Source: a virus (lineage: Duplodnaviria; Heunggongvirae; Uroviricota; Caudoviricetes). Taken from it: a stretch of 14,562 bases of DNA. Position numbers and translations under genes: made by a program. The stretch's first letter is position 1, and each line of letters opens with the position of its first letter. A model generated the notes under the pieces. The model searched no databases. It saw nothing but the letters and a program-made list of their open reading frames with translations, and had not been told where the DNA came from. The stretch covers positions 1 to 14,562 of IMG/VR virus record IMGVR_UViG_2695420651_000023. One strand, 5' to 3'. This document shows, one piece after another, positions 1 through 14,562 of this stretch.

Positions 1-23
1 GGCAGAAGCAGAAAAAGCTTATT

Positions 24-701
24 ATGCTTCCATCAGAAACGATGATCTGGCAGCCTGAGTTCACAGATAAAACACTCTCCAGGAAAACCGGGGCGGTTCA
101 TTTTGCTGCTCTACTTCCGGGGTTTTTGGCACTCAATAATTCTGTATGGGCAAGTGATTTGCCTGGTATGACTCTTAATGAACATGATTTAGTGATAGCC
201 CCACTTAACACCGAAGTTCCATTCTACATTGCAGGGCATCGCAGTCATAGCTCCCATCGGAGCCATAGTTCTCACCGTTCATCATCAGGTGGCGGGTACT
301 ATGGTGGCAGCACTCCCTATTATCCAAAAACATACAGCTCACCAAGTTCATCTGGGTCTTCAAGTTCAGGAACAAGTCCCTCATCGTCCTCTTCCTCTGT
401 GCGTTCGCTTCGTTCTAACGACAATAACAACTCTACTACTACGAATTCTGTTGGAACTACAGAAGCTAACCGTGCAAGTAATGGGCTGACTTCTGGTACA
501 GAGAAGCGTAAGCGCTTAATCATGCGGGTTCAATTCGCTTTGCTGGACAAAGATTATTACAACGGGAATATTGACGGCATAATGGGGCCTTCCACAAGGC
601 AGTCAATAAAAAATTATCGCATTGCGAACGGACTACCAGTGCCCTCAAGTGAAACCTTGGATATACAGTTGTTAAATTCATTAAGTATTTTAGCTCGATA
701 A
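24..701 (+). CDS. secreted His-Xaa-Ser-repeat protein with Ser-rich linker and C-terminal peptidoglycan-binding (PG_binding_1-like) domain
   Basis: N-terminal hydrophobic stretch AVHFAALLPGFLALNNSVWA followed by SD (signal-peptide-like, AXA-type site). Repeat HRSHSSHRSHSSHRSSS. Long S/T/G/N-rich low-complexity linker. C-terminus DGIMGPSTRQSIKNYRIANGLPV resembles PG-binding domain. Reading frame is open upstream to the window edge, so the true start could be 24, 42, or outside the window. Confidence 0.6.
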   Translation: MLPSETMIWQPEFTDKTLSRKTGAVHFAALLPGFLALNNSVWASDLPGMTLNEHDLVIAPLNTEVPFYIAGHRSHSSHRSHSSHRSSSGGGYYGGSTPYYPKTYSSPSSSGSSSSGTSPSSSSSSVRSLRSNDNNNSTTTNSVGTTEANRASNGLTSGTEKRKRLIMRVQFALLDKDYYNGNIDGIMGPSTRQSIKNYRIANGLPVPSSETLDIQLLNSLSILAR

Positions 702-769
702 ATTAAGTATATTAAAAATTTTTCACTTTAACATTAACTTGTATGAATATATATTTCAGAGGCGATTAA

Positions 770-2581
770 ATGTCAGTCAGCTATAACATATATAGAATGC
801 CATATAAGAGTCTTCCAGAATTGACAAAAAAAATCATTAAAGAAGGGCTTGTCGAACAAAAAACTATTCTACATCAATCTTATCAACTCAAATTTTATTT
901 TTCTGATAAATTAAAAGGAAATGAAGTATGGTGGTGGGATGTTTTTAGTGATTTCTTCAATGAAGAAATTGAAAAGCCTCATAATATATTCTATTTTGGC
1001 CTGCTAATAGGATTTAAAGAAAAGGACCCTGAGAATTGCTATCTTATCAGTCTTGGTAAATCACATTTTTATCTCAGCAAGTTTATTGAAGCAGACTTTG
1101 GGCTGAATGTGGCAATGCGTATAGCTAATGATGAAAATATTTTACTCAAGAAAAGCAGATTCTTTTGTGGGGGAAAGAGTCAGGAGGCATCCTCATACTC
1201 ACAGTTTGTTCAAGGAGCATATTTTCCTGGCGAATCCATCGAGCATCTCAAAACAAAAGCCAAAGAAACTGACAAGTGGGGATGTAATAATATAACTTTT
1301 TCTGATTCAATTCAGCTAAGTTTGGATGGTGCTCCTACTGCATTAGTCGATGTTTTCAATGATATTGATTCTTCGTTGGCAACCAAAGAGAAAATCGAAT
1401 TTCCTAAATCGGAAAAAATCACTGACGAGTCAAAGATAGATGAGCTTGATAATTGTCTACTTCAATCGATCATTACAGATGATGCAAAAGTTATTATTGA
1501 TGAGATTCAATCTTTTGGTGCCTCTATTGTAATTAATAATTCTTTGACATTTTTTAAATTGCACACAAAAGTTGAGGGGAGTGGAAAGTATCTTCAATCA
1601 TCAGATAAAATTAATGACATAAAAATAGCAGATGTAAAGAAATTCATAAAAAATAACAACATAAAAGATGTCAATAAAGTTTTTGTTAAGATAACTAATG
1701 AAAATAACAGTGGTCATACAGCCTCGTTAAAAGAAATATTGAGCATTACTTATAGCGAGGGCAGCGAGCACTTCTTCCTTAAGAGGGGAGGATGGAGTCG
1801 ATTTAACTCTGCTTTTATGAAGTATTTGTCTACTTCTTTAGCCAGTATAAAATTTGAGGTTAAAGATGCTCTTAAGGAAGACGACTTCAAAGTATGGCAA
1901 GCTGAAAAAATAAAACAAATCGCAGAAGGAACTTCTAAAGACAAATTAGAATATAGAGAATATTATTTTAATGAAAAGATGTCTGATGAGAAAGGTTATA
2001 TACTTCTAGATCGCCAGCTAAAAAAAATACCATCCTTACGTGATAATGGCAAGGACTACAATGTTGAAGTTGCAGATCTTTATAAAAATGGAGAGATTAT
2101 TGCTGTAAAGATATCAGATAAACCGCATGATCTAATTTATAATATTGAACAGTCAAAAACCACAATTCAAACTATAGTAAGAGGAGTAGTAAAATTTGAA
2201 GAGACAATTACTGATGTGGTTTTATGGATCTCAACTACTACAAAAGCTAAAAAATTAATTGACATCAATTCTATTCAATTTTTATTAGCGGTTCAAACTT
2301 GGAAGGAAGTTGTTGAAGGATTTAATCTGAAACCAAAGATATATTATTCACATCACGATAAACCCCAAAAGAAAAAGGGAAAGAAAAAAACGCATCTTAA
2401 ATCTGAACTTAGAATTGGTTATGGAGAAAGATATCAGGTTATAGCGTCTCAGTATCGCTCCAATATTTGTGTGGATTATGTATCACCGATACTACCAAAA
2501 TTATTATGTTTTAGGTATGGTGATTTACCGCCATACCTCTTTTGTATTTATCTCGCAATGATGTTGTTTACTTTTGTTTAA
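770..2581 (+). CDS. hypothetical protein, 603 aa, AT-rich orphan; candidate defence/abortive-infection protein
   Basis: Long uninterrupted ORF with SD GAGG 7 nt before the ATG. K/N/I-rich composition and very low GC. No TM segments and no catalytic motif (Walker A, HNH, RT YxDD) recognisable by eye. Confidence 0.7.
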   Translation: MSVSYNIYRMPYKSLPELTKKIIKEGLVEQKTILHQSYQLKFYFSDKLKGNEVWWWDVFSDFFNEEIEKPHNIFYFGLLIGFKEKDPENCYLISLGKSHFYLSKFIEADFGLNVAMRIANDENILLKKSRFFCGGKSQEASSYSQFVQGAYFPGESIEHLKTKAKETDKWGCNNITFSDSIQLSLDGAPTALVDVFNDIDSSLATKEKIEFPKSEKITDESKIDELDNCLLQSIITDDAKVIIDEIQSFGASIVINNSLTFFKLHTKVEGSGKYLQSSDKINDIKIADVKKFIKNNNIKDVNKVFVKITNENNSGHTASLKEILSITYSEGSEHFFLKRGGWSRFNSAFMKYLSTSLASIKFEVKDALKEDDFKVWQAEKIKQIAEGTSKDKLEYREYYFNEKMSDEKGYILLDRQLKKIPSLRDNGKDYNVEVADLYKNGEIIAVKISDKPHDLIYNIEQSKTTIQTIVRGVVKFEETITDVVLWISTTTKAKKLIDINSIQFLLAVQTWKEVVEGFNLKPKIYYSHHDKPQKKKGKKKTHLKSELRIGYGERYQVIASQYRSNICVDYVSPILPKLLCFRYGDLPPYLFCIYLAMMLFTFV

Positions 2582-2984
2582 GTCTTCTAAGCTTCATACT
2601 TTCTAATGAGAATAATAATAGAGTTGTGCTGTATATAAAACCAGAGTTAGTTAATAACTTTAAATTTAATGCTTCAGGATTTTCACTGAGAAAATGAAAG
2701 GCATAAACTAAGTATACAGCTAAAGCAGCCGTTCCAATTGTTGGTCCAATATCGCCTTGATCATGAGGTTCAAGGTTTACATTGAATTTAAAGATTAGCC
2801 ATTCAAATCCCCAAGTAAAAAAAACAACTAATATCATGGCTGCGAATAATTTCGCGATGTTATCTGCTGATGGATTCATCAGAACAGATTGTTTCTGAAA
2901 AAATTCACAAAGTGAGAGTCCGAAAAAAATAAAAAAAAGTGGTCTGGAACTAAATTTTTCAAAAACTTTGAATAGGGTTTCCAT
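2568..2984 (-). CDS. small integral membrane protein, 138 aa, about 4 predicted TM helices
   Basis: Four hydrophobic stretches (LFFIFFGLSLCEFF, AAMILVVFFTWGFEWLIF, IGTAALAVYLVYAFHFL, IYSTTLLLFSL). Starts 38 bp downstream of the int stop on the same strand. Its 3' end overlaps the convergent 603-aa gene by 14 bp. Confidence 0.55.
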   Translation of the reverse strand: METLFKVFEKFSSRPLFFIFFGLSLCEFFQKQSVLMNPSADNIAKLFAAMILVVFFTWGFEWLIFKFNVNLEPHDQGDIGPTIGTAALAVYLVYAFHFLSENPEALNLKLLTNSGFIYSTTLLLFSLESMKLRRLKQK

Positions 2985-3022
2985 TTTCTTTACCTTCAGG
3001 ATTATATTAGCTATTCTGATAC

Positions 3023-4252
3023 TTAGGCTACCAGAGCATTTGATCTTTGAGCTTGAACGTAATCACTCCACCATTGCATCAAACTCTGTCGCTCTATCAG
3101 ATATTCTGCACGATTGTATGCTGCGATAATTTCATCTTTTTTCGAGTGGGCAAGCGCTGCCTCAAGAACTTCAGCTCTGAATTTACCAGACTCCTCTGCC
3201 GCTGTTCGCGCAATAGAACGCATACCGTGAGCTACAAGCTCGCCTCCGAACCCCATTCGGATGATAGCTGCGTTGGCTGTTTGTTCATGCATATGATTAA
3301 GAGGCGCTTTAATGCTGGGGAAAACCCATTCTCTATGCCCACTTATTGATTTCATTAATTCAAGGATGCGCAAAGCTTCTTTACTCAAAGGAACTTTGTG
3401 AGGCTTTTTCATTTTCATGAAATCAGCAGGAATGTTCCAAATGCTGTTGGTTGTATCAATATCAGACCATCTTGCGCGAACGGCTTCACCCGGACGAACC
3501 CATGTCAACAATTGCCATTCAATTAGCATACGTGTTTCCAACCGGATTGACGCATTCGTCAAAGATTCCATAAACCTTGGCAATTCGCTTGGGGGAAGGG
3601 CAGGCATATTTTGCTTTTTTGGTTTACTGAATCTTTGACCAAGGTTGTCAGCCGGGTTGAACTCAATAAGTTCTTCAGTAGCTGCCCACCTGAAGATTTC
3701 ATTCAGACGTGAAATGATACGGCGTAGAGTTTCCAATACGCCTCGTTGCTTAATAGGATCAAGGTGTTGTTTTAAGAGCTTAGGCCGGATCTCATTGATA
3801 GGGACATTACCCAGACCAGGAAAGACATTTCTCTCTAAGCTGCGCCAGATGTCTGCTGCATGGTCTTGTGAGATACCTGATGTCTTTACCTTCTCATCTA
3901 ACCATTTCCGCGCTACGGCTTGGAGAGTGTGCTCAGTAGCACTCTTTAATGCCTTCGCCTTATCGTTGTTATGGATTTGTGGATCAACACCATTTGCCAG
4001 AAAGGAAAGATATTCATCACGTAAGGCTCTGGCTCTTGCCAGTGTAAGGTGAGGATAGGTCCCAAGGCTCATTTTGGTTCTTTTTTTACTCACTGGCACT
4101 GCATACCTGAAATACCAATTCTTCTTTCCTCCTTTCGAGAGGGGAGCGATTCGTAGTATCAAACCATCTCCGTCAAACAAGTTGATTTCTTTGTCGGCTG
4201 GCTTGGTGCTTTTGATTTCAGTGTCAGTGAGCTTCTTAGCGATTTTTGCCAT
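3023..4252 (-). CDS. int: tyrosine recombinase, P4-family integrase (N-terminal arm-binding domain)
   Basis: N-terminus MAKIAKKLTDTEIKSTKPADKEINLFDGDGLILRI...WYFRY is typical of P4/CP4-57 IntA-type integrases. Start moved from 4294 to the ATG at 4252, which has SD GAGGG 7 nt upstream. C-terminal catalytic region contains R...H..R and a Tyr-containing segment. Confidence 0.9.
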   Translation of the reverse strand: MAKIAKKLTDTEIKSTKPADKEINLFDGDGLILRIAPLSKGGKKNWYFRYAVPVSKKRTKMSLGTYPHLTLARARALRDEYLSFLANGVDPQIHNNDKAKALKSATEHTLQAVARKWLDEKVKTSGISQDHAADIWRSLERNVFPGLGNVPINEIRPKLLKQHLDPIKQRGVLETLRRIISRLNEIFRWAATEELIEFNPADNLGQRFSKPKKQNMPALPPSELPRFMESLTNASIRLETRMLIEWQLLTWVRPGEAVRARWSDIDTTNSIWNIPADFMKMKKPHKVPLSKEALRILELMKSISGHREWVFPSIKAPLNHMHEQTANAAIIRMGFGGELVAHGMRSIARTAAEESGKFRAEVLEAALAHSKKDEIIAAYNRAEYLIERQSLMQWWSDYVQAQRSNALVA

Positions 4253-4349
4253 TTTGGGACCCTCGGTTTTTGGACCCTTCTTAGTGGGTCTCATTCAGGG
4301 TGCCATAACTCGTAGTTCTCAGCAATTCTCACTGGACGACAATAGACGT

Positions 4350-4381
4350 AAAAAAGCCCGCAGAGCTTGTGCTGTGCGGGC
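4350..4381 (-). terminator. rho-independent terminator on the minus strand, between the ssrA fragment and int
   Basis: Plus strand reads AAAAAA + GCCCGCAGAGC + TTGT + GCTGTGCGGGC (11-bp stem, one mismatch). On the minus strand this is hairpin followed by TTTTTT. Confidence 0.5.
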
Positions 4382-4417
4382 TTAGTAGACTTCATTGTAC
4401 TTCAAACAACTAAAAAG

Positions 4418-4464
4418 TGGTGGAGCTGGCGGGAGTTGAACCCGCGTCCGAAATTCCTACATAC
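4418..4464 (-). repeat. ssrA: 3'-terminal ~47 nt of ssrA (tmRNA), att core repeat; not a complete tmRNA gene
   Basis: Reverse complement reads ATGTAGGAATTTCGGACGCGGGTTCAACTCCCGCCAGCTCCACCA, the acceptor/T-arm end of enterobacterial tmRNA as I recall it. Sequence further upstream (4465 onward) is unrelated to tmRNA. Confidence 0.8.
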
Positions 4465-4612
4465 CATTTTTACCATAACAAAAACATTAAGTTTCGTTTA
4501 AAATCAGTCTGTTATTGTTATTTTGTGTTTGTCCGTTTTACGCTTTTTTAATGTTCTGCCGCCAAAATGCCGCCACATTGTAGGTATTAAGTCTGCTATT
4601 TATCACCTGTTG

Positions 4613-5509
4613 TTAAGACACGCGGGCATCGTACCCATACAAGTCTTGAAAGCATGAGTAAAACAATTCTTGATTGTTGAGTTCGCCCTTTGTTTCCGGT
4701 ATTTCACTCTGTAGAAAATTTTTATTAATTGTCCACTCAATAGCTAAAGTATTAGTGTAGTTTGTTGAACTACTAATTTTAGCATTATTAGGATGAAAAA
4801 GTTGCTGTATAAATTCAATATCTGAATCAAGTGAAATAAAATGTATGTTTGCATTATCTTTTAATCTATCATCAAATCTAAGTTGGATAGTGGTTTTGTA
4901 ATGATTAAAATCAGCAATTGGGTTATAAGATGAAAAATTTTTACTTTTAAATTTTAATATCTTCTCAGCTCGTTGGCTTCCAAAGATATACATCAGAGCT
5001 ACAATTGTAAACGGTTGGTTTTTAAATTCATTAAACTCGTTTACTATCTCTTTAAACTCATAATATGTATTCTCTCGTTGTTCTACTTTCTTTGTTTCCC
5101 CTATTTTTTCTTGTAGCTTATCAAGGAATTTTGTTTTTTTATCTATTAATCTGTCAGTTTCTTTTTCATATATTATTTTTGATAGTTTATTTACATTGGA
5201 TGTTAGGAAATCATAATCAGTGTTAGCTTCTTTAATAAATGATTTTACAATTTCACTATCCTCTATAATTAATTTTCTTATTTTTTTATTAGGTGTTTTT
5301 ATGATTTCTAATTTGCCGTTACTGTCAAGTTTTTTATGGGTTTTTCCTTCTATTATTGATAGTAAAGGTGAGAAAGTATTTCCTTTGATATCTAATGCTT
5401 TTAATTTATTAAGCATATCAATTCTATTAGGTTCTGGGATATTAGAAGAATTGTTGTGCTTATTCATTAGATCAATTATGTTTCGATCTAAAAGGTAGAG
5501 CTCTGTCAT
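4613..5509 (-). CDS. hypothetical protein, 298 aa, AT-rich moron between prophage int and att
   Basis: ORF begins 12 bp downstream of the int stop on the same strand. K/N/I/E-rich, very low GC. No TM segments or recognisable motifs. Confidence 0.7.
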   Translation of the reverse strand: MTELYLLDRNIIDLMNKHNNSSNIPEPNRIDMLNKLKALDIKGNTFSPLLSIIEGKTHKKLDSNGKLEIIKTPNKKIRKLIIEDSEIVKSFIKEANTDYDFLTSNVNKLSKIIYEKETDRLIDKKTKFLDKLQEKIGETKKVEQRENTYYEFKEIVNEFNEFKNQPFTIVALMYIFGSQRAEKILKFKSKNFSSYNPIADFNHYKTTIQLRFDDRLKDNANIHFISLDSDIEFIQQLFHPNNAKISSSTNYTNTLAIEWTINKNFLQSEIPETKGELNNQELFYSCFQDLYGYDARVS

Positions 5510-5521
5510 AATAATTACCTT

Positions 5522-6547
5522 TTAATTAGTAGAAAAAAGAGTGGCTAAAGGATTTTTTGTCACCGCATCTTCAAGATGCTCTGGTGCGAAATGAGCATAA
5601 ATCATGGTCATTTTTATATCGGTATGGCCTAAAATTTCTTTAAGCACAAGTATATTACCGCCATTCATCATAAAGTGGCTGGCGAATGTATGGCGTAGCA
5701 CGTGGGTGCATTGTCCTTCTGGCAGTTCGATACCGGCCCGCTTTACTGCCCGCTCAAAGGCTTTTCTGCATGGTGTGAATAATTTCCCTCTATTTTTGGG
5801 AAGTTCGTCATACAGATCCTGAGATATTGGCACGGTACGGTTTTTCTTGCCCTTCGTCTTGGTGTATGTGATGCGGTATTTTGACAACTGGTGTCCCTGC
5901 AGATTTTCTGCTTCACTCCAGCGTGCTCCGGTGGCCAGGCATATTTTTGCAATCATCAGCAGGCTGGGGCTTTGAGAATCTGCGCAGGCATCCAACAGGC
6001 GCTTGATTTCGTCCATGGAAAGAAAGGCCAGCTCACCTTCAGCAATTTTAAATGTAGGAAGTCCTGCCAGTGGGTTTGGTGCTGACCAGTGTCCCAGCTT
6101 TTTCAGTGTGCCAAAAACCGATGACAGGTTGCGTTGTTCAAGATTTACCGTGCGGGGCTTAACAGGCGACATAAGCGCGCCATCTTCATTTCGCACTTCA
6201 CCCTTTAGCCGTGCTTCCCGGTATTTCGTAAAATCACCGGCGGTCAGTTCTGAAGCGATGGGATCGCCCAGACCATTACAGATAATTTTAAGTTTCGCCA
6301 TCAGGCGTTTGGGGTCAGCAAGCGTCTGCCCGTAAAGTGAGTACCATTGTTCAATCACTTCTGACAAATGTCGCCGATCTTCCTTTTCCCCCAGCCACGG
6401 TTTTTTGTTCACTTCTTCCATTGTGAAACGTTCAAACGCAATGGCTTCGCCTTTTGTCGCAAATTGTTTACGTACGCGTTTGCCATCTCGCCCGTTTGGG
6501 TAGCATTCACACAACCACTTTCCGTTCGGCTGTTTTCTGATCGTCAT
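5522..6547 (-). CDS. int: tyrosine integrase, P2/186 family
   Basis: N-terminus MTIRKQPNGKWLCECYPNGRDGKRVRKQFATKGEAIAFE resembles P2 Int. C-terminal HVLRHTFAS...GH...IYAH catalytic box. Start lies 2 bp after the cI stop. Confidence 0.9.
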   Translation of the reverse strand: MTIRKQPNGKWLCECYPNGRDGKRVRKQFATKGEAIAFERFTMEEVNKKPWLGEKEDRRHLSEVIEQWYSLYGQTLADPKRLMAKLKIICNGLGDPIASELTAGDFTKYREARLKGEVRNEDGALMSPVKPRTVNLEQRNLSSVFGTLKKLGHWSAPNPLAGLPTFKIAEGELAFLSMDEIKRLLDACADSQSPSLLMIAKICLATGARWSEAENLQGHQLSKYRITYTKTKGKKNRTVPISQDLYDELPKNRGKLFTPCRKAFERAVKRAGIELPEGQCTHVLRHTFASHFMMNGGNILVLKEILGHTDIKMTMIYAHFAPEHLEDAVTKNPLATLFSTN

Positions 6548-6549
6548 TA

Positions 6550-7182
6550 TTAGATGCTCTTAATCACTTTTACCACACGCCCTACAACGGCTACGTCATC
6601 AACTGCACATTCAAAGGTTGTTTCTTCCTGATGAACAACAAGCTTATTTCCGGGAATTCGAGCTACTTTTACGATGCTTTTCACTCCATCAATATCAACA
6701 AGCCAAGAGCCATTACTGATCTGTTTTACAGATACATCAACAATAAAACTTTCTGTTGTCGTTTGTATGAATAGATAGTTTGACGAATCGCCCTCAACCA
6801 ACCTGCTATCTAATAAAATTTCGTCATATGATTGAAGTTCACCATTTCTTAATTCTGTGTATTTGATACTGGGAGCTACGATTTTAGAAAGTGGTCTAAT
6901 TGTGACGTCATTATCATTTTTGAGAATGTTTGAGTCACAGTTATCTGCATACATATCACCCTGTCCGGTTGCCAACCAAAGAAGCGAGATCCCGGTTTCT
7001 AGAGCACATTGAATTACCCACTCTGCTGGAAAGCTATCTCTTAAGTATCTGTTTGCCATGGTGCTTTTAGATACTTTTAAGTGTTCGCAGAGTTGTTGGC
7101 GTGAGCTGAAATTGTAGGCTTTTATCAGCCTGTTGATGGCATCACGCCCCCCACTATCGTTTCCACCCTTGATTAGACTCAT
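6550..7182 (-). CDS. cI: CI-type immunity repressor (186-like), N-terminal HTH
   Basis: Start moved from 7314 to the ATG at 7182 (MSLIKGGN...), which has a G-rich SD. HTH-like segment QQLCEHLKVSKSTMANRYL. Sits immediately upstream of int and divergent from the apl-like gene. Confidence 0.75.
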   Translation of the reverse strand: MSLIKGGNDSGGRDAINRLIKAYNFSSRQQLCEHLKVSKSTMANRYLRDSFPAEWVIQCALETGISLLWLATGQGDMYADNCDSNILKNDNDVTIRPLSKIVAPSIKYTELRNGELQSYDEILLDSRLVEGDSSNYLFIQTTTESFIVDVSVKQISNGSWLVDIDGVKSIVKVARIPGNKLVVHQEETTFECAVDDVAVVGRVVKVIKSI

Positions 7183-7300
7183 AATCAAACCCCCCCTGAC
7201 GCATATAAAATGAGATCTTAATATCCATTCATGGTTTGAAAAGCAAAACCAAACCACATAAAACGAGATGATACGATTACAAACTAAGAGATACTGCACT
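7183..7300. promoter_or_regulatory. lysis/lysogeny switch region between cI and the apl-like gene (promoters and operators)
   Basis: 118-bp AT-rich divergent intergenic region. Inverted repeat TGGTTT-N8-AAACCA at 7232..7251. TTGAAA hexamer at 7236..7241. Confidence 0.4.
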
Positions 7301-7549
7301 ATGAGCAACGACATTTCAATTCGTGTACCAAAAGTGATGGCGACACCAGCTGAGTTCGCGGAATGGGAAGGCCGCTCTCGCGGTTCGGTATATCAAATGA
7401 TTCATAATGGAAAACTCGCTAAATTCTTGGAAAGAAAAGAAAAACCGAAAGACAGAGTATGTATACGTTACCTTGAGTACAAAAAGGAACAAGTCAGGAA
7501 AAACATGGGCCAATCCAATTTCAACTTTAATGTCATCGTTGGTGACTAA
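7301..7549 (+). CDS. Apl/Cox-like small HTH protein (excisionase/transcriptional repressor)
   Basis: 82 aa; HTH-like segment ATPAEFAEWEGRSRGSVYQMIHNGKL. First rightward gene opposite cI. Start choice (7301 versus 7268 or 7337) is uncertain. Confidence 0.55.
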   Translation: MSNDISIRVPKVMATPAEFAEWEGRSRGSVYQMIHNGKLAKFLERKEKPKDRVCIRYLEYKKEQVRKNMGQSNFNFNVIVGD

Positions 7550-7581
7550 GTTCAATTATGAGAACTTTCTAAGGGGGCAGC

Positions 7582-8091
7582 ATGTTTGATTACAAGATTT
7601 CCAAACATCCGCATTTTGATGAAGCCTGTAGAGCTTTTGCACTACGTCACAATATGGCGAAGCTGGCAGAACGTGCAGGAATGAATGTTCAGACACTGCG
7701 AAACAAACTCAACCCAGATCAACCGCATCAGCTCACCGCATCAGAAATCTGGCTGCTTACCGATCTGACTGAAGATTCAACGCTGGTAGATGGTTTTCTG
7801 GCACAGATTCACTGCCTGCCATGTGTACCGATTAATGAGGTAGCAAAAGAGAAACTGCCGCATTACGTCATGAGTGCAACCGCAGAGATCGGGCGTGTTG
7901 CTGCAGGTGCGGTATCTGGCGATGTAAAAACCAGTGCAGGTCGTCGTGATGCTATCAGCAGCATTAACTCTGTAACACGACTGATGGCGCTGGCTGCTGT
8001 TTCATTGCAGGCCCGTTTACAGGCTAACCCTGCGATGGCGAGTGCAGTTGATACCGTGACTGGCCTCGGTGCTTCATTCGGATTGCTGTGA
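7582..8091 (+). CDS. cII: CII-like regulatory protein (186 CP76 family)
   Basis: 169 aa, the same length as 186 CII as I recall it. Sits immediately after the apl-like gene with a G-rich SD. Confidence 0.55.
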   Translation: MFDYKISKHPHFDEACRAFALRHNMAKLAERAGMNVQTLRNKLNPDQPHQLTASEIWLLTDLTEDSTLVDGFLAQIHCLPCVPINEVAKEKLPHYVMSATAEIGRVAAGAVSGDVKTSAGRRDAISSINSVTRLMALAAVSLQARLQANPAMASAVDTVTGLGASFGLL

Positions 8092-8265
8092 GGTGCTTAT
8101 GCTGACGAAAGAACCATCATTTGCATCGCTGCTGGTAAAACAAAGTCCGGCAATGCACTACGGTCACGGCTGGATCATGGGTGAGGATGGTAAACGCTGG
8201 CATCCATGTCATTCACAAGATGAATTGCTGTCTGAATTGACCACGAGGAAACGGAGAAAGTCAAA

Positions 8266-8490
8266 ATGTATGCAGCGGAAAGTGAAGTGGTTTATCAGTT
8301 TCGTTACAGAGGGGAGAGTTATTCAGTACCTGAAGATGATTTGCTCTGTTGTTATCCGTCGTTGTCGGGCGATGGCAGTTACTTTTTCACGCTAAAGGAT
8401 GGGACGTTTTTACGGGGAGAGCAGGTTAAAGAGACGATACGAAAAAATGTATCTCCTCTTGAACGTTACCGTAAGAACAAAGAACGATAG
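8266..8490 (+). CDS. hypothetical early protein, 74 aa
   Basis: Good SD (GGAG, about 9-nt spacer). Protein-like composition. Overlaps an alternative ORF at 8099..8395 in another frame. Confidence 0.45.
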   Translation: MYAAESEVVYQFRYRGESYSVPEDDLLCCYPSLSGDGSYFFTLKDGTFLRGEQVKETIRKNVSPLERYRKNKER

Positions 8491-8512
8491 TTGCGTTTTG
8501 GGGATATGAATT

Positions 8513-8854
8513 ATGGCAATTAATGGCGCTGCGGCGACTGTTCCATTAAGCCCCGGTGAACGCCTGAATGGACTTAATCATATTGCGGAATTAAGGGCGA
8601 AAGTTTTTGGCCTGAATATTGAGTCAGAGCTTGAGCGGTTTATTAAAGATATGCGTGATCCACGGGATATCAATAATGAACAAAATAAACGGGCACTGGC
8701 TGCTATATTCTTTATGGCAAAAATTCCAGCTGAACGTCATAGCATCAGCATTAATGAGCTGACCACTGACGAAAAGCGGGAGCTGATTAAAGCAATGAAT
8801 CATTTTCGTGCGGTGGTGAGCTTATTTCCCAGACGGCTAACCATGCCGAATTAA
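8513..8854 (+). CDS. hypothetical phage early protein, 113 aa
   Basis: ATG with GGGGA SD. Balanced composition. Sits in the early operon. Confidence 0.55.
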   Translation: MAINGAAATVPLSPGERLNGLNHIAELRAKVFGLNIESELERFIKDMRDPRDINNEQNKRALAAIFFMAKIPAERHSISINELTTDEKRELIKAMNHFRAVVSLFPRRLTMPN

Positions 8855-8921
8855 CCAACTAATGAAATTAATGGCGTAAACCCGCCGGGCATCCCTTTAT
8901 CTAAATTCAGGAGAATTGATT

Positions 8922-9155
8922 ATGCGTAATATTGAAATCCTCACGACTAAAACCGGACCGGATGATGCAGGGCTTAATATTTTACTGACAGAGGCTCGTC
9001 TGGAAGAACGCCGGGCAAGGGCTGAAGCAATGGCAGCTCGCCTTGATAGCCTGGCGTGTCATATCTCATCCCGTCAGCTAAACCACGTGGAAGCGGCAGA
9101 ACTGCTGCGTGTGACTGCTGAAGCAATCCAGAACGAAGCGCAGGAGATCCACTAA
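8922..9155 (+). CDS. hypothetical phage early protein, 77 aa
   Basis: Start taken at the ATG at 8922 (SD CAGGAG, 8-nt spacer) rather than the TTG at 8916. Stop overlaps the next gene's start (TAATG). Confidence 0.55.
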   Translation: MRNIEILTTKTGPDDAGLNILLTEARLEERRARAEAMAARLDSLACHISSRQLNHVEAAELLRVTAEAIQNEAQEIH

Positions 9156-9382
9156 TGGCTGATGCAATGGATCTCGTACAGCAGCGCGTTGAAGAAGAAC
9201 GCCAGCGCTATATCCGTGCTGCCCGTGCCAAAACACCGGGCGTGTCTCGTGTGCTTTGTATTGAATGTGAAGCGCCAATTCCGCCAGCACGACGCCGCGC
9301 CATTCCTGGAGTGCAGCTTTGCATTACCTGTCAGGAAATCGCAGAGCTGAAAGGCAAACATTACAACGGAGGTGTTGTATGA
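9155..9382 (+). CDS. TraR/DksA-family C4 zinc-finger protein
   Basis: CIECEAPIPPARRRAIPGVQLCITC gives Cys-x2-Cys-x17-Cys-x2-Cys. Translationally coupled to both neighbours. Confidence 0.75.
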   Translation: MADAMDLVQQRVEEERQRYIRAARAKTPGVSRVLCIECEAPIPPARRRAIPGVQLCITCQEIAELKGKHYNGGVV

Positions 9383-10236
9383 GTACCATCCTGAAATGGG
9401 CGGGAAATAAAACCGCCATTATGTCCGAACTGAAAAAACATCTTCCTGCTGGCCCGCGACTGGTTGAACCTTTCGCGGGTTCCTGTGCTGTGATGATGGA
9501 GACGGATTACCCCAGCTATCTTGTTGCGGATATTAATCCTGATTTAATCAACCTCTATAAAAAGGTTGCTGCTGATTGCGAGGCGTTTATATCTCGTGCC
9601 AGAGCTTTATTTGAGGAAGCAAACAGGGAGGTGGCTTATTACAACATAAGGCAGGAGTTTAATTACTCCACTGAAATTACTGATTTCATGAAAGCGGTAT
9701 ATTTCCTGTATCTCAATCGTCATGGTTACCGTGGGTTATGTCGCTATAACAAGAGCGGGCATTTCAACATTCCGTACGGTAATTATAAAAATCCGTATTT
9801 CCCTGAAAAAGAAATTCGCGCATTTGCAGAGAAAGCCCAGCGGGCAACGTTTATCTGCGCCAGCTTTGATGAAACGCTGGCGATGTTGAAGGCGGGGGAT
9901 GTGGTGTATTGCGATCCGCCTTATGACGGTATGTTTTCCGGCTATCACACTGACGGCTTCACTGAAGATGACCAGTATCACCTGGCATCCGTTCTTGAAC
10001 ATCGGTCATCAGAAGGACATCCGGTCATTGTTTCTAACAGTGACACATCCCTGATCCGTTCGCTGTATCGCAATTTTACTCACCACTACATCAAGGCAAA
10101 ACGCAGCATCGGCGTGGCAGCTGGTGAGAGTAAATCTGCAACAGAAATCATCGCTGTTTCCGGGCCGCGCTGCTGGGTAGGATTTGATCCTTCGCGTGGC
10201 GTGGATTGTTCCGTCGTGTACGGAGTGCGTGCATGA
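9379..10236 (+). CDS. dam: DNA adenine methyltransferase (Dam-like, N6-adenine, GATC-type)
   Basis: Strong similarity to E. coli Dam as I recall it: [37 protein letters not shown] (motif IV DPPY). Start at 9379 (SD GGAGGTG) overlaps the upstream stop (ATGA). Confidence 0.9.
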
Positions 10237-12647
10237 GCCATGCTGATATGAACAACTGCAGCGGCTTTAACGAGTTCGCCGCAGCATTCTCATGGAACAG
10301 CCCGAAAAAGGCCATTAACCCTTATCTGGACCCGGCGGAAGTTGCGCCGGTTTCTGCGCTTTCAAACCTGATCACTCTGTACGCTGCCGATAACGAGCAG
10401 GAACAACTGCGCCGCGAGGCACTGAGTGATCAGGTCTGGGAGCGTTATTTCTTTAATGAATCCCGTGATCCTGTCCAGCGCGAAATGGAACAGGATAAGC
10501 TCATTAGTCGGGCAAAGCTGGCGCATGAGCAGCAGCGTTTTAATCCGGATATGGTCATTCTGGCGGACGTCAACGCCCAGCCTTCCCATATCAGCAAGCC
10601 GCTGATGCAACGTATTGAATACTTCAGCAGCCAGGGCAGGCCAAAGGCTTATTCCCGCTATTTACGTGAGACGATTAAGCCATGTCTGGAACGGCTGGAG
10701 CATGTACGCGACAGTCAGCTATCCACTTCTTTTCGCTTTATGGCAAGCCATGAAGGGCTGGACGGCCTGCTGATTCTGCCTGAAATGAGTCAGGATCAGG
10801 TGAAACGCCTGTCCACCCTTGTTGCTGCGCATATGAGCATGTGCCTTGATGCAGCTTGTGGCGATTTGTATGCCACCGATGACGTTAAGCCAGAAGAAAT
10901 CCGCAAGACATGGGAAAGGGTGGCGGCGGAAACCCTGCGTCTGGATGTCATCCCACCTGCGTTTGAGCAACTCCGCCGGAAAAGAAACCGCCGTAAACCC
11001 GTGCCCTATGAACTCATTCCGGGTTCGCTGGCGCGTATGTTGTGCGCCGACTGGTGGTATCGGAAATTATGGAAGATGCGTTGCGAATGGCGGGAGGAGC
11101 AGTTGCGCGCTGTCTGCCTGGTTAGCAAAAAAGCATCTCCTTATGTCAGCTATGAAGCCGTGATGCATAAACGTGAGCAGCGCCGTAAGTCGCTGGAGTT
11201 TTTCCGTTCTCATGAACTGGTGAACGAAGACGGCGACACGCTGGACATGGAGGATGTGGTAAACGCCAGCAGCAGCAACCCTGCGCATCGCCGCAATGAG
11301 ATGATGGCCTGTGTTAAAGGTCTGGAGCTTATCGCGGAAATGCGCGGTGACTGCGCCGTTTTCTACACCATCACCTGTCCGTCACGTTTCCATTCCACGC
11401 TAAATAACGGCAGGCCCAACCCAACCTGGACAAATGCGACGGTAAGACAAAGTAGTGATTATCTGGTCGGCATGTTTGCTGCATTTCGTAAGGCGATGCA
11501 CAAAGCCGGATTGCGCTGGTATGGCGTGCGGGTGGCTGAGCCGCATCATGACGGTACAGTTCACTGGCACCTGTTGTGTTTTATGCGCAAAAAAGACCGC
11601 CGCGCCATCACTGCATTACTGCGTAAGTTTGCCATCCGTGAAGACCGCGATGAGCTGGGCAATAACACTGGGCCGCGCTTTAAGTCTGAGTTGATTAACC
11701 CGCGCAAAGGTACGCCAACAAGCTACATCGCGAAATACATCAGTAAGAACATTGACGGGCGTGGTCTGACTGGCGAGATCAGCAAGGAAACGGGGAAATC
11801 CCTGCGTGATAATGCTGAATACGTTAATGCCTGGGCGTCTCTGCATCGTGTTCAGCAATTCCGCTTCTTTGGCATTCCGGGGCGTCAGGCTTACCGTGAA
11901 CTGCGATTGCTGGCTGGTCAGGCGGCAAGGCAACAGGGGGACAAAAAAGCAGGTGCGCCGGTACTGGATAACCCGCGCCTTGATGCAATCCTGGCTGCTG
12001 CTGATGCTGGTTGTTTTGCCACCTACATCATGAAGCAGGGCGGCGTACTGGTTCCCCGCAAATATCACCTGATCAGAACCGCTTATGAAATCAACGAAGA
12101 GCCGACCGCCTATGGCGATCACGGCATTCGTATTTATGGCATCTGGTCACCCATTGCAGAGGGCAAGATCTGCACTCATGCGGTGAAGTGGAAAATGGTT
12201 CGTAAGGCCGTTGACGTTCAGGAGGCGGCAGCCGACCAGGGCGCTTGCGCCCCTTGGACTCGTGGCAATAACTGTCCCCTTGCTGAAAATTTGAACCAAC
12301 AAGGGAAAGACAAATCAGCTGATGGGGATACCAGAACGGAAATCACCCGCATGGATGACAAGGAATTGCACGATTACCTGCACAGTATGAGCAAAAAAGA
12401 GCGCCGGGAACTGGCAGCAAGGTTACGCCTGGTTAAACCGAAACGGCGTAAAGACTACAAACAGCGAATTACAGATCATCAGCGACAGCAGCTCGTCTAT
12501 GAACTGAAGTCCAGAGGATTTGATGGCAGCGAGAAAGAGGTCGATTTACTCCTTCGCGGCGGCAGTATTCCGTCAGGAGCAGGCCTGCGTATCTTCTATC
12601 GGAACCAGCGTCTGCAGGAGGATGATAAATGGCGGAACCTGTATTAA
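10233..12647 (+). CDS. replication initiation endonuclease, P2/186 gene A family (rolling-circle, HUH-type)
   Basis: HUH-like motif [13 protein letters not shown] and twin-tyrosine motif [10 protein letters not shown] (phiX174 gpA / P2 A type YxxKY). Start at 10233 overlaps the dam stop (ATGA). 804 aa. Confidence 0.85.
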
Positions 12648-12741
12648 TTACGCAGGTTAACAATTCGTGCTCTTAATAATACCAGGCATATCAGGCTGAT
12701 GAGCGTAAAAAAACGTTTTACATCAGTAAGATTATTATATG

Positions 12742-12757
12742 CTGTAAATATAAACAG
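12742..12757. promoter_or_regulatory. LexA (SOS) box upstream of the tum/dinI-like operon
   Basis: CTGTAAATATAAACAG matches the CTGT-N8-ACAG consensus. Lies 43 bp upstream of the ATG at 12800, with a TATACA -10-like hexamer just downstream. Confidence 0.6.
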
Positions 12758-12799
12758 TGGTTATGTATACAGTGTTGCTTTGGTGTCATAGGAGGAAAG

Positions 12800-12988
12800 A
12801 TGCAGGACTATTTTTTGGAGTCTTTGAAGCTCCAGCGCATTGATTTTTTTCTTAAGCTTGTAGCGGCTAGTGAGTGTAGTGATGAAGAGAAGGGGCTGGC
12901 CCTGCAGTGGGTTTCTGAACTGACAGATGAACTCATGGCAAAAATCAGAACCCACGAATACAACCGCTCAATGGATGTCATCAGCTGA
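12800..12988 (+). CDS. small SOS-operon protein, 62 aa; candidate Tum-like antirepressor (N-terminal part)
   Basis: AGGAGG SD 6 nt upstream. First gene after the LexA box. Position corresponds to 186 tum. Confidence 0.5.
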   Translation: MQDYFLESLKLQRIDFFLKLVAASECSDEEKGLALQWVSELTDELMAKIRTHEYNRSMDVIS

Positions 12989-12998
12989 GGTGACTTTT

Positions 12999-13232
12999 AT
13001 GCGCATTGAAATAATGATCGATAAAGAGCAGAAGATTAGCCAGTCTACCCTGGACGCTCTGGAGTCAGAGCTTTACCGCAACCTGCAACCCATCTATCCC
13101 AAGACAGCTATCCGCATCCGTAAAGGGTCGGCAAACGGCGTTGAGCTGAGTGGCTTAAAGCTTGATGAAGACAAAAAGCGGGTGATGGAAATTATGCAGC
13201 AGGTTTGGGAAGACGACAGCTGGCTGCACTAA
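12999..13232 (+). CDS. DinI-family protein, 77 aa
   Basis: MRIEIMIDK...LDALESEL...DEDKKRVMEIMQQVWEDDSW aligns by eye with E. coli DinI (MRIEVTIAK...IDALAGEL...KEDKQRISEILQETWESADDW). Start at the ATG at 12999 with SD GAGGTG. Confidence 0.8.
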   Translation: MRIEIMIDKEQKISQSTLDALESELYRNLQPIYPKTAIRIRKGSANGVELSGLKLDEDKKRVMEIMQQVWEDDSWLH

Positions 13233-13305
13233 GGAACGTTCCTGATGTAAGAACTTGATTCTGACGTCAGCAAGGTTGAACAACGAGAGTAGCGAGGCGT
13301 TAGCC

Positions 13306-13566
13306 ATGGGTAAAAAAGACAGTAATCACCAGATTATTTATCGGGGCCAGGTGCTGGAACGGTTTACCCCTGGCGGCTGGGTCTTCTTTCAACGCCCAAA
13401 GGAGTGTGGCGGAGGTTTTTGGTTGGGCCGCACCTATGAAGACTGCTTCTGGCTTGAGCTGGAATTCCCCGTTTCGCTATATGACGGCCTGGAGTTTTTG
13501 ATGGAAGTCACCAGGGTAGAGCAGAGAAGTGATGAGGTTGACGCGAATTATTCCCTGTTTGATTAA
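13306..13566 (+). CDS. hypothetical protein, 86 aa
   Basis: ATG at 13306 with GAGG SD; the track's upstream extension uses a TTG start. No recognisable motifs. Confidence 0.5.
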   Translation: MGKKDSNHQIIYRGQVLERFTPGGWVFFQRPKECGGGFWLGRTYEDCFWLELEFPVSLYDGLEFLMEVTRVEQRSDEVDANYSLFD

Positions 13567-13585
13567 AAATGTATTAGCTTATAAT
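13559..13585 (+). promoter_or_regulatory. sigma70-like promoter for the 203-aa gene
   Basis: -35 TTGATT (13559..13564), 15-bp spacer, perfect -10 TATAAT (13580..13585), about 30 bp upstream of the ATG at 13615. Confidence 0.45.
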
Positions 13586-13614
13586 GGAATACTATTTTTG
13601 CAGGTGGGGGCGCA

Positions 13615-14226
13615 ATGGATTTAGTCTTTAAAATTCTGGCTTCGTTGGGTGGGGTGTCTTTTGTTGCATCTGGCATATTTGTTTGGATCGGGAAAGTTTA
13701 TTTAGAAAGATATAAGTCGCGGCTAAACAAAGATATTGCTGAATTTCAATCACAACTGAGTGCAACTAATGAAAGAATAAAGGCTAAGTTAGACAATTCT
13801 GTTTATGTAACGAAAGCGTATTTTGATAAGGAGTTATCAGCATATAGTCTCATTTGGAATTCGATGTTTGAAACCAGAGAAAGCGTGCTTAAGCTGAGGC
13901 CTGCGCTGGATCATTTTGACCCCAACGAACCATTTGAAGAGAGAAAATTTAGAAGGTTGAAAGTTTTTTTCGATGCATTTAATACTTTTGTTACAAGTGT
14001 TGAGTCTAACAAACCGTTCATCTCACCAGAGGTTTATATAATCTTGGACCGTTTCCGGAAGGAATGCCTTTCAGAGTCAATATCGTTTCAGCATGGCGAT
14101 CCAGAATTTGACTGGCAAAATTATTGGAAAGAGGCAGAGTTGAACCGTACAACCATCACCAAGCTTTTTGATGAGACGTGTGATGCAATTCGAGACAGGA
14201 TGCACACATTAACTGTGGTTACGTAG
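13615..14226 (+). CDS. membrane-anchored hypothetical protein, 203 aa (single N-terminal TM helix); candidate defence moron
   Basis: N-terminal hydrophobic helix ILASLGGVSFVASGIFVWIG, then a charged/coiled-coil-like region. Own promoter and strong SD AGGTGGGGG. Lower GC than the phage core. Confidence 0.7.
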   Translation: MDLVFKILASLGGVSFVASGIFVWIGKVYLERYKSRLNKDIAEFQSQLSATNERIKAKLDNSVYVTKAYFDKELSAYSLIWNSMFETRESVLKLRPALDHFDPNEPFEERKFRRLKVFFDAFNTFVTSVESNKPFISPEVYIILDRFRKECLSESISFQHGDPEFDWQNYWKEAELNRTTITKLFDETCDAIRDRMHTLTVVT

Positions 14227-14317
14227 TTTTCCAAAAAGTCTCGATGCCCGCTTTGGCGATTGTGCATGTCTATGCCGCATGAATCCGCATGATCGTTTGA
14301 GGATCGTTTTAGCTGAG

Positions 14318-14341
14318 GCCCGCTAGGAATGGCGGGCTTTT
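14318..14341 (+). terminator. rho-independent terminator
   Basis: GCCCGC + 8-nt loop TAGGAATG + GCGGGC, followed by TTTT. Confidence 0.55.
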
Positions 14342-14386
14342 GCTTATGTCATGCAGGCGCATGAAAACCACTACATAAAGCGGGCA

Positions 14387-14405
14387 GGCGTGGCGGGGAT
14401 ACGAG
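14387..14405. other. cos-like site (P2/186-type cohesive end)
   Basis: GGCGTGGCGGGGATACGAG resembles the 19-nt P2/186 cohesive end (GGCG[A/T]GGCGGGGA...) as recalled from memory. Position between the early region and the expected late genes fits the P2 map. Confidence 0.35.
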
Positions 14406-14562
14406 CGCGCGCTCATGGTTGAATTAATGAAATTATGGTGTTAAATAGGCTAGCTTTTGGTGATGCTGCCAACTTACTGATTTAGTGTATGATGGTGTTT
14501 TTGAGGTGCTCCAGTGGCTTCTGTTTCTATCAGCTGTCCCTCCTGTTCAGCTACTGACGGGG

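Follow-up and report, generated by a model that had tools for sequence, protein, structure and literature searches.

The DNA analysed here, referred to as the window, is a stretch of 14,562 nucleotides recorded as viral (positions 1 to 14,562 of the IMG/VR record IMGVR_UViG_2695420651_000023). It carries two sets of genes, each with its own tyrosine integrase, on either side of a short copy of the 3'-end of the tmRNA gene (ssrA). Its features, from left to right, are the following.

1..96, plus strand: right end of an IS3-family insertion sequence (the island-complete contigs L011-L014 match the window from position 97 only)
97..701, plus strand: hxsA, His-Xaa-Ser repeat protein, cargo (NCBIfam TIGR03979, 151.9 bits)
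770..2581, plus strand: DUF6119/TIGR04141 protein of 603 aa, cargo (Pfam PF19614, 5e-27; NCBIfam TIGR04141)
2568..2984, minus strand: hypothetical protein of 138 aa, conserved beside the integrase (phrog_6556, 1e-68; the same neighbour in loci L001, L002, L017 and L034)
3023..4252, minus strand: P4/CP4-57-type tyrosine integrase, 409 aa as called in RefSeq relatives, the furthest start of its open reading frame being at 4294 (Pfam, NCBIfam)
4350..4383, minus strand: predicted intrinsic terminator in the int-proximal att arm of the island (fold and consensus terminator scan)
4384..4417, minus strand: spacer of the island att arm, from the CCA end to the terminator (CTTTTTAGTTGTTTGAAGTACAATGAAGTCTACT, also found after intact ssrA in L011, L017 and L020-L029)
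4418..4462, minus strand: displaced ssrA 3'-end, the putative attR core of the prophage and former 3'-end of the attL of the island (match to K-12 ssrA; attP of phage Cartapus)
4463..4612, minus strand: int-side (P) arm of the prophage att, 150 nt, AT-rich (aligns with the attP arm of Cartapus and the attR arms of L004 and L034)
4613..5509, minus strand: cargo gene of 298 aa, GC 27.6%, in the variable spot between int and att (open reading frame; different genes in relatives)
5522..6547, minus strand: prophage tyrosine integrase of P2/186 type, 341 aa (Pfam Int_N, Phage_integrase)
6550..7182, minus strand: 186-type CI repressor, 210 aa as called in L015, with the open reading frame extending to 7314 (Pfam Phage_CI_repr, Phage_CI_C)
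7582..8091, plus strand: CII (CP76) early-operon regulator (Pfam PF06892, 2.6e-44)
10206..12647, plus strand: replication endonuclease gpA (Pfam Phage_GPA, 5.5e-128; 94% DNA identity to Cartapus over the region)

The minus strand of 4418-4462 reads ATGTAGGAATTTCGGACGCGGGTTCAACTCCCGCCAGCTCCACCA and is identical at 45 of 45 positions to the final 45 nt of the Escherichia coli K-12 ssrA (positions 319-363). This match is unique in the window and was obtained in none of 200 dinucleotide-preserving shuffles, and the search for a second copy of the core within the window returned chance matches of 10 nt or less. The first-pass annotation of this DNA, which had been made from the letters of the sequence, described the fragment as the last ~47 nt of the tmRNA with the gene itself absent. 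The alignment of the core to the ssrA 3'-end that it proposed as a check trims the length to 45 nt of clean identity, as extending the alignment with the K-12 gene to 4464 (~47 nt) requires a 1-nt gap for the last two bases. With the O55:H7/O157:H7 allele of ssrA, the unbroken identity covers 43 nt (4418-4460). The absence of the gene, on the other hand, was borne out: ARAGORN run over the whole window detected neither a tmRNA nor a tRNA gene, and hence no complete ssrA adjoins position 4464. The Rfam model of tmRNA (RF00023) matches with 31.5 bits (gathering score 47) and aligns confidently at the 3'-end only (model positions ~325-374), and a full tRNA-like domain, tag frame and pseudoknots scoring at the gathering level are lacking in the window. 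The immediate surroundings of the fragment are also as described earlier, with the P4-type integrase gene exactly 165 bp away on one side (gap 4253-4417), and the int-proximal end of a 186-like prophage on the other, where Pfam identifies int, CI, CII, DUF5347 and replication protein A.

The gene order to the right of the fragment is that of the early region of 186/Fels-2-type phages, i.e., int, CI and a divergent operon with CII (CP76), DUF5347 and Phage_GPA. The integrase shares 90-95% identity with those encoded in 29 phage records and 39% with P2 Int. The P2-type late genes (the Q-L capsid operon, tail genes and ogr) are present in the related loci L004-L010 and L034, and the window stops before them. 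It ends in the variable region between gpA and portal (12648-14562), which we take to be the main defence hotspot of P2, and which here contains small open reading frames and a 203-aa protein (phrog_26391) of a widespread type, found in 2,135 blocks of the contig collection. At its other end, the P arm of the prophage att has a consensus that runs ...GTTTTTGTTAT(A/G)GTAAAAATGGT up to the core. The 298-aa cargo protein encoded between this arm and int has no match in Pfam (above threshold), PADLOC, PHROGs, NCBIfam or the PDB, and its single-sequence AlphaFold2 model is unusable (pLDDT 40.6). In relatives, the same slot is occupied by genes for RES-domain, dCMP-deaminase-domain and HNH proteins, gapS1, and uncharacterised proteins of 408 and 506 aa. 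The slot matches in position a minor defence hotspot between int and att that has been described in P2-like phages (PMC13586616), and the 298-aa cargo gene could be considered a candidate anti-phage gene.

On the left side of the fragment, the island integrase is composed of the Arm-DNA-bind_3 (PF13356), Phage_int_M (PF22022) and Phage_integrase (PF00589) domains, matches NCBIfam PRK09692 with 441.7 bits (cut-off 434) and is 48% identical to IntA of K-12. The left border of the window is the right end of the insertion sequence, which has replaced the first codons of hxsA, and the hxsBCD partners of this gene are absent. In L011, HxsD and two radical-SAM genes are found upstream of hxsA, and the fuller island of this contig includes a relaxase, the Hxs radical-SAM cluster, MComp1/CTD1 and DUF6119. 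The E. coli O55:H7 strain DEC5E (L017), in contrast, matches from position 1 of the window with the same IS/hxsA junction, at which RefSeq annotates an IS3 family transposase. The IS3-associated deletion appears to have removed hxsBCD, the MComp1/CTD1 genes and the relaxase, leaving an orphan HxsA and the DUF6119 gene. We also considered whether the island is a P4 satellite and rejected this identification, for psu, delta, sid, alpA and alpha are absent from the window as well as from the L011 island, and the integrase alone is of P4 type.

Relatives of the two elements provide the other att configurations with which this junction could be compared. The free Escherichia phage Cartapus has an attP made of the P arm, the identical 45 nt and a P' arm with a terminator of its own. 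It is located between the int-adjacent cargo gene and the ogr-side gene and reads ...GTTTTTGTTATAGTAAAAATGGT, the 45-nt core and AATAAATCAAGGGGTTACGTGAAAGCGTAGCCCCTTTTTC. The left arm of this attP aligns with 4463-4520 of the window, the right arm contains a strong terminator (-19.8 kcal/mol, z = -4.4), and the start of its core, as delimited by the attP identity block, coincides exactly with the start of the ssrA fragment. The attB configuration is seen in DEC5E, in GCA_000249495.2 and in contigs L011-L014, in which the same island abuts an intact ssrA-smpB with no prophage in between. These genomes are 99.9-100% identical to the window from 1 or 97 up to 4460, encode the identical 603-aa DUF6119 protein, and run thereafter into the complete ssrA and smpB; the unoccupied site can be read directly in DEC5E, L011 and L012, and the arm expected to follow ssrA in a restored attB is CTTTTTAGTTG... 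The window itself represents attR, i.e., phage arm, core and island arm. Lastly, two complete E. coli genomes (NZ_AP022036.1 and NZ_CP114592.1) have the same attR junction followed by a P2-like prophage of 33-35.5 kb, whose P2-type capsid, lysis and tail genes lead to ogr, a 160-aa gene, a perfect 363-nt ssrA and smpB. In both, the ssrA CCA is followed by a Cartapus-type P' arm with its terminator (AATAAATCAAGGGGTTACG...), which constitutes attL.

Of 5,426 complete E. coli genomes, 82 contain the full junction, comprising the island terminator, the core and the phage arm. Together with the attP, attB and attL configurations, this recurrence is as expected if a phage integrates site-specifically into an ssrA that already holds another element. 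We therefore consider it highly likely that 4350-4612 joins two integrative elements inserted one after the other at the tmRNA gene of E. coli. Their boundaries can be given at base resolution, the prophage ending at 4462/4463 and the island arm starting at 4417. Tandem integration at ssrA, with the prophage beside the intact gene past the right edge of the window and the island with the P4-type integrase pushed downstream, had been proposed in the first-pass annotation and is supported by every comparator examined, be it of attP, attB or attL. The comparison predicts an intact ssrA ~33 kb to the right of the fragment, i.e., ~23 kb past the window edge, a position that is carried over to this genome from its relatives. 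The far-end architecture is drawn from prophages that are 82-97% identical in their common parts, rather than from the window's own genome, and the exact prophage with the 298-aa cargo gene is carried by none of the complete E. coli genomes in the collection. The closest public match to the locus is a 31.4-kb contig of a draft E. coli genome (GCA_001284785.1, CYAH01000040.1), which is 99.98% identical to 1-12582 of the window and should end within the prophage. Because of this identity, and since the left 4.3 kb of the window is 100% identical to DEC5E, the window DNA is assigned to E. coli, from or near the O55:H7/O157:H7 lineage.

A further observation concerns the annotation of this site in public genomes. 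In NZ_AP022036.1, RefSeq/PGAP annotates a 177-nt 'ssrA transfer-messenger RNA' (1140562-1140738; L001, 9419-9595), which covers the displaced fragment and the phage arm and overlaps the adjacent CDS. It is an attR remnant misannotated as a tmRNA gene, as seen in some genomes, and the attR reading accounts for the spurious short 'ssrA' that PGAP sometimes places here.

From the observed identities and the architecture of the relatives, we infer the following order of events. An island with a P4/CP4-57-type integrase would have entered the 3'-end of ssrA, its int-proximal arm supplying the sequence after the CCA, including a terminator for ssrA. A temperate phage of the Peduoviridae, with 186-type CI/CII and an integrase of the P2/186 family, likely recombined subsequently with the island-occupied ssrA through an attP that bears a 45-nt copy of the ssrA 3'-end; Cartapus is its nearest relative. 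This integration would have restored a complete ssrA, now with the terminator of the phage, at the remote (ogr) prophage end, and displaced the original last 45 nt of ssrA, along with the island terminator and the island int, ~33-35 kb downstream. That the island came first and the prophage later is indicated by prophage-free relatives, which carry the identical island, inclusive of the IS junction at its truncated end. The fragment would now be the attR core of the prophage, an otherwise inert gene remnant at which excision or further integration could take place by recombination, and the former ssrA terminator would close the cI-int-cargo transcription unit of the prophage. The order of acquisition may help in typing of O55:H7/O157:H7-related lineages.

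A single polymorphism places a bound on where the strands were exchanged. The ssrA alleles differ by one base, 44 nt from the 3'-end, where O55:H7/O157:H7 has GACGTAGG and both K-12 and the phage attP have GATGTAGG. Position 4461 of the window has the base of the phage/K-12 allele (T in the ssrA sense), whereas the prophage-free relatives of the lineage have C. Since the fragment has the phage base at this position, strand exchange would have taken place 3' of 4461, within 4418-4460, if the parental ssrA had the O55:H7 allele. The polymorphism (around 13690 in L011) could serve as a marker for mapping the crossover if the attL of the same strain is sequenced.

The two elements differ in the length of ssrA that they duplicate. 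The prophage has its own distal tDNA fragment in the window (4418-4462), and the corresponding end of the island lies past the IS and is read from DEC5E and K-12 only. The distal island junction of DEC5E, beyond the IS, is ...AGTTACAGGGACGCCAGC followed by AATCATGATTGG..., in which CGCCAGC and adjacent bases, ~7-10 nt in all, are left of the ssrA end. In K-12, the distal remnant of CP4-57 is the 14-nt psaA, CCGCCAGCCCACCA, located beside the same host flank as the distal junction of DEC5E. The sequence at the extreme 3'-end of ssrA over which P4-type integrases recombine thus appears to be much shorter than that used by the phage integrase. The first-pass annotation had anticipated a further copy of a 47-bp core at the outer end of the island, and this expectation does not agree with the 14 and ~7-10 nt found in the relatives. 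As the exchange stretch of the island is short and its distal copy has decayed, a third 47-bp copy is not to be expected, and its lack does not count against the tandem model. Since its body is truncated and its distal site decayed, the island has probably lost the capacity for autonomous excision.

The hairpin beside the fragment merits separate consideration, for it bears on the relationship between the two elements. On the minus strand (4383-4350), a GC-rich stem of 9+3 bp is followed by TTTTTT (UUUUUU in the transcript), with a minimum free energy of -22.9 kcal/mol (z = -2.6 against shuffles), and is predicted to be an intrinsic terminator. It begins 34 bases from the CCA end and has a homologue inside CP4-57, in the terminator that follows the ssrA of K-12. 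The first-pass annotation was right in placing a minus-strand terminator between the repeat and int, at 4350-4381 (4350-4383 here), and it further held that the hairpin would insulate int from the prophage operon, a purpose for which it does not appear to be there. Selection of the terminator for insulating the island int from prophage cI-int read-through is an unlikely explanation: read-through from the prophage int operon would indeed reach the hairpin before int, but the arm and the hairpin are unchanged in prophage-free L011 and L017, directly after the intact ssrA. The same hairpin is conserved after intact ssrA in other genera. A scan with one genome per species found the island arm in 13 other species, 10 of which have an intact tmRNA gene, detected by ARAGORN, ending just upstream; these include Citrobacter, Kluyvera, Enterobacter, Raoultella, Klebsiella oxytoca and Xenorhabdus. 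Because the terminator is identical where there is no prophage and is conserved after intact ssrA across genera, it likely predates the prophage and serves ssrA, and we regard it as the ssrA terminator supplied by the island family. The terminator in the P' arm of the phage would be carried to the same end. Phage integration would then have swapped the clients of the two terminators, such that the phage hairpin ends ssrA and the island hairpin ends the prophage cI-int-cargo transcripts. No other terminator-like site was detected in the scan between the cargo stop (4613) and the island int, and a block of read-through from the prophage int operon is therefore plausible as an incidental by-product of the hairpin.

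One locus from the same scan differs from the others. In Photorhabdus heterorhabditis (NZ_RCWA01000024.1; L030, ~2700-2760), only the final 29-30 nt of ssrA stand before the arm and the terminator, and the DNA farther upstream is AT-rich and unrelated. The locus appears to be an independent tandem array, with a different upstream element that has a shorter core.

The best Rfam match at the junction is IsrM (RF02763; 4350-4493, minus strand, 67.1 bits, E = 9e-17), a virulence sRNA of Salmonella that is expressed as a 329-nt transcript (PMC3174252). It is conceivable on this basis that the junction is a functional IsrM-like sRNA gene, running from the phage arm through the tmRNA remnant to the terminator, and that the region is kept for that reason; a weak sigma-70-like site is also found upstream (4606-4577). 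We consider this extremely improbable. The score is far below the gathering score of 376 bits, with 214 of the 329 model positions replaced by 39 nt, on account of which the junction was rejected as an IsrM gene. Moreover, the matched part is the att arm and terminator of the island, which follow an intact tmRNA gene in most species, and recombination of attP with attB fully accounts for the sequence. The likeness is confined to the 3'-terminal ~70 nt of the model with its terminator, which are near-identical to 4417-4350 of the window; further upstream, IsrM has GGACGCCAGCCAC, a decayed ssrA-end motif, where the window has a clean 45-nt ssrA end. The consensus of IsrM upstream of the island arm and terminator (aauuaCaagGACGCCAGCCAC) resembles the distal arm and decayed core of DEC5E (AGTTACAGGGACGCCAGC; L017, 3640-3720). 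When judged from the Rfam consensus by itself, this resemblance suggests that the Salmonella IsrM may be located where two islands meet, or on a junction resembling attP, with a decayed ssrA att site. Salmonella was not among the 13 species recovered in the arm scan (one genome per species), and the scan of viral contigs returned a single chance match and no IsrM. It is also very unlikely, if slightly less so, that the int-cargo operon of the prophage yields a stable 3' RNA made of the phage arm, the tmRNA T-arm remnant and the swapped terminator, analogous to IsrM. If transcripts across such att junctions were made regularly and were active as sRNAs, new regulatory RNAs could arise through tandem integration at ssrA.

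A pseudogene truncated by insertion or deletion, with a functional ssrA elsewhere or lost, is the least credible reading of the fragment and was rejected: just 45 nt of the gene are present, none is detected by ARAGORN, and an IS element did make a deletion in the adjacent island, but the attP core of a free phage has exactly the boundary of the fragment, down to the base, 82 complete genomes show this boundary as well, and both genomes examined for it have a perfect 363-nt ssrA at the opposite prophage end. The preferred reading, i.e., a prophage attR in a tandem array at ssrA, describes an arrangement that is ordinary and already known, at a locus already in public genomes, and leaves the understanding of integration at the tmRNA gene unchanged. 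The result serves mainly as annotation.

The prophage belongs with the P2-like phages of this site, of which Fels-2 and SopEPhi have been reported to integrate into ssrA (PMC3448106). It resembles Fels-2, SopEPhi and Cartapus in its P2-like gene order and 186-type CI/CII, the likeness to Fels-2 being drawn from sources other than a direct comparison, and also in having a long core that restores the ssrA 3'-end and an int at the end away from the intact ssrA. The prophage part of the window is matched by Cartapus (Peduoviridae, Elveevirus) across 79% of its length with 94% DNA identity, and the 45-nt core is common to both. However, the immunity/int region of the prophage is only ~82-90% identical to that of its relatives, and Cartapus has a RES-domain gene between int and att in place of the 298-aa open reading frame.

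CP4-57 at the ssrA of K-12 is the textbook example of an island with a P4-type integrase at this locus. The island of the window shares with it the locus, the integrase family (48% identity), an int oriented like ssrA and located ~200 bp downstream of it, the homologous terminator after the CCA and the host flank (ATCATGATTGG...) past the distal att. The two differ in cargo, which is alpA, yfj and ypj in CP4-57 and HxsA and DUF6119 in the window, and in the arm between the CCA and the terminator, and the window has a prophage between the island and ssrA.

Tandem islands at the tmRNA gene were reportedly described by Williams in 2003, in 'Traffic at the tmRNA gene'. The Islander survey found the tmRNA gene to be the most enriched tDNA target and defines as a category those tandem arrays whose islands each come with a separate integrase and fragment (PMC4383910). 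By the features that Islander uses, the fragment equals the tmRNA 3'-end without a full gene, the window encodes two full-length tyrosine integrases with catalytic domains (P4-type, 3023-4252; P2/186-type, 5522-6547), and an intact tmRNA gene in the same orientation is seen at the other end in two of the complete E. coli genomes that share this junction. The departures from other tandem tDNA arrays are in detail only, viz., the truncation of the island by an IS3-family element and, in its relatives, the decay of the distal att to 7-14 nt, because of which an automatic search might find one clean fragment only. In all other respects, the locus is like such arrays. One end would carry the regenerated target gene, a displaced 3' piece of it in matching orientation separates the two elements, both elements encode a tyrosine integrase of their own, and the element that came later would be closest to the complete gene.
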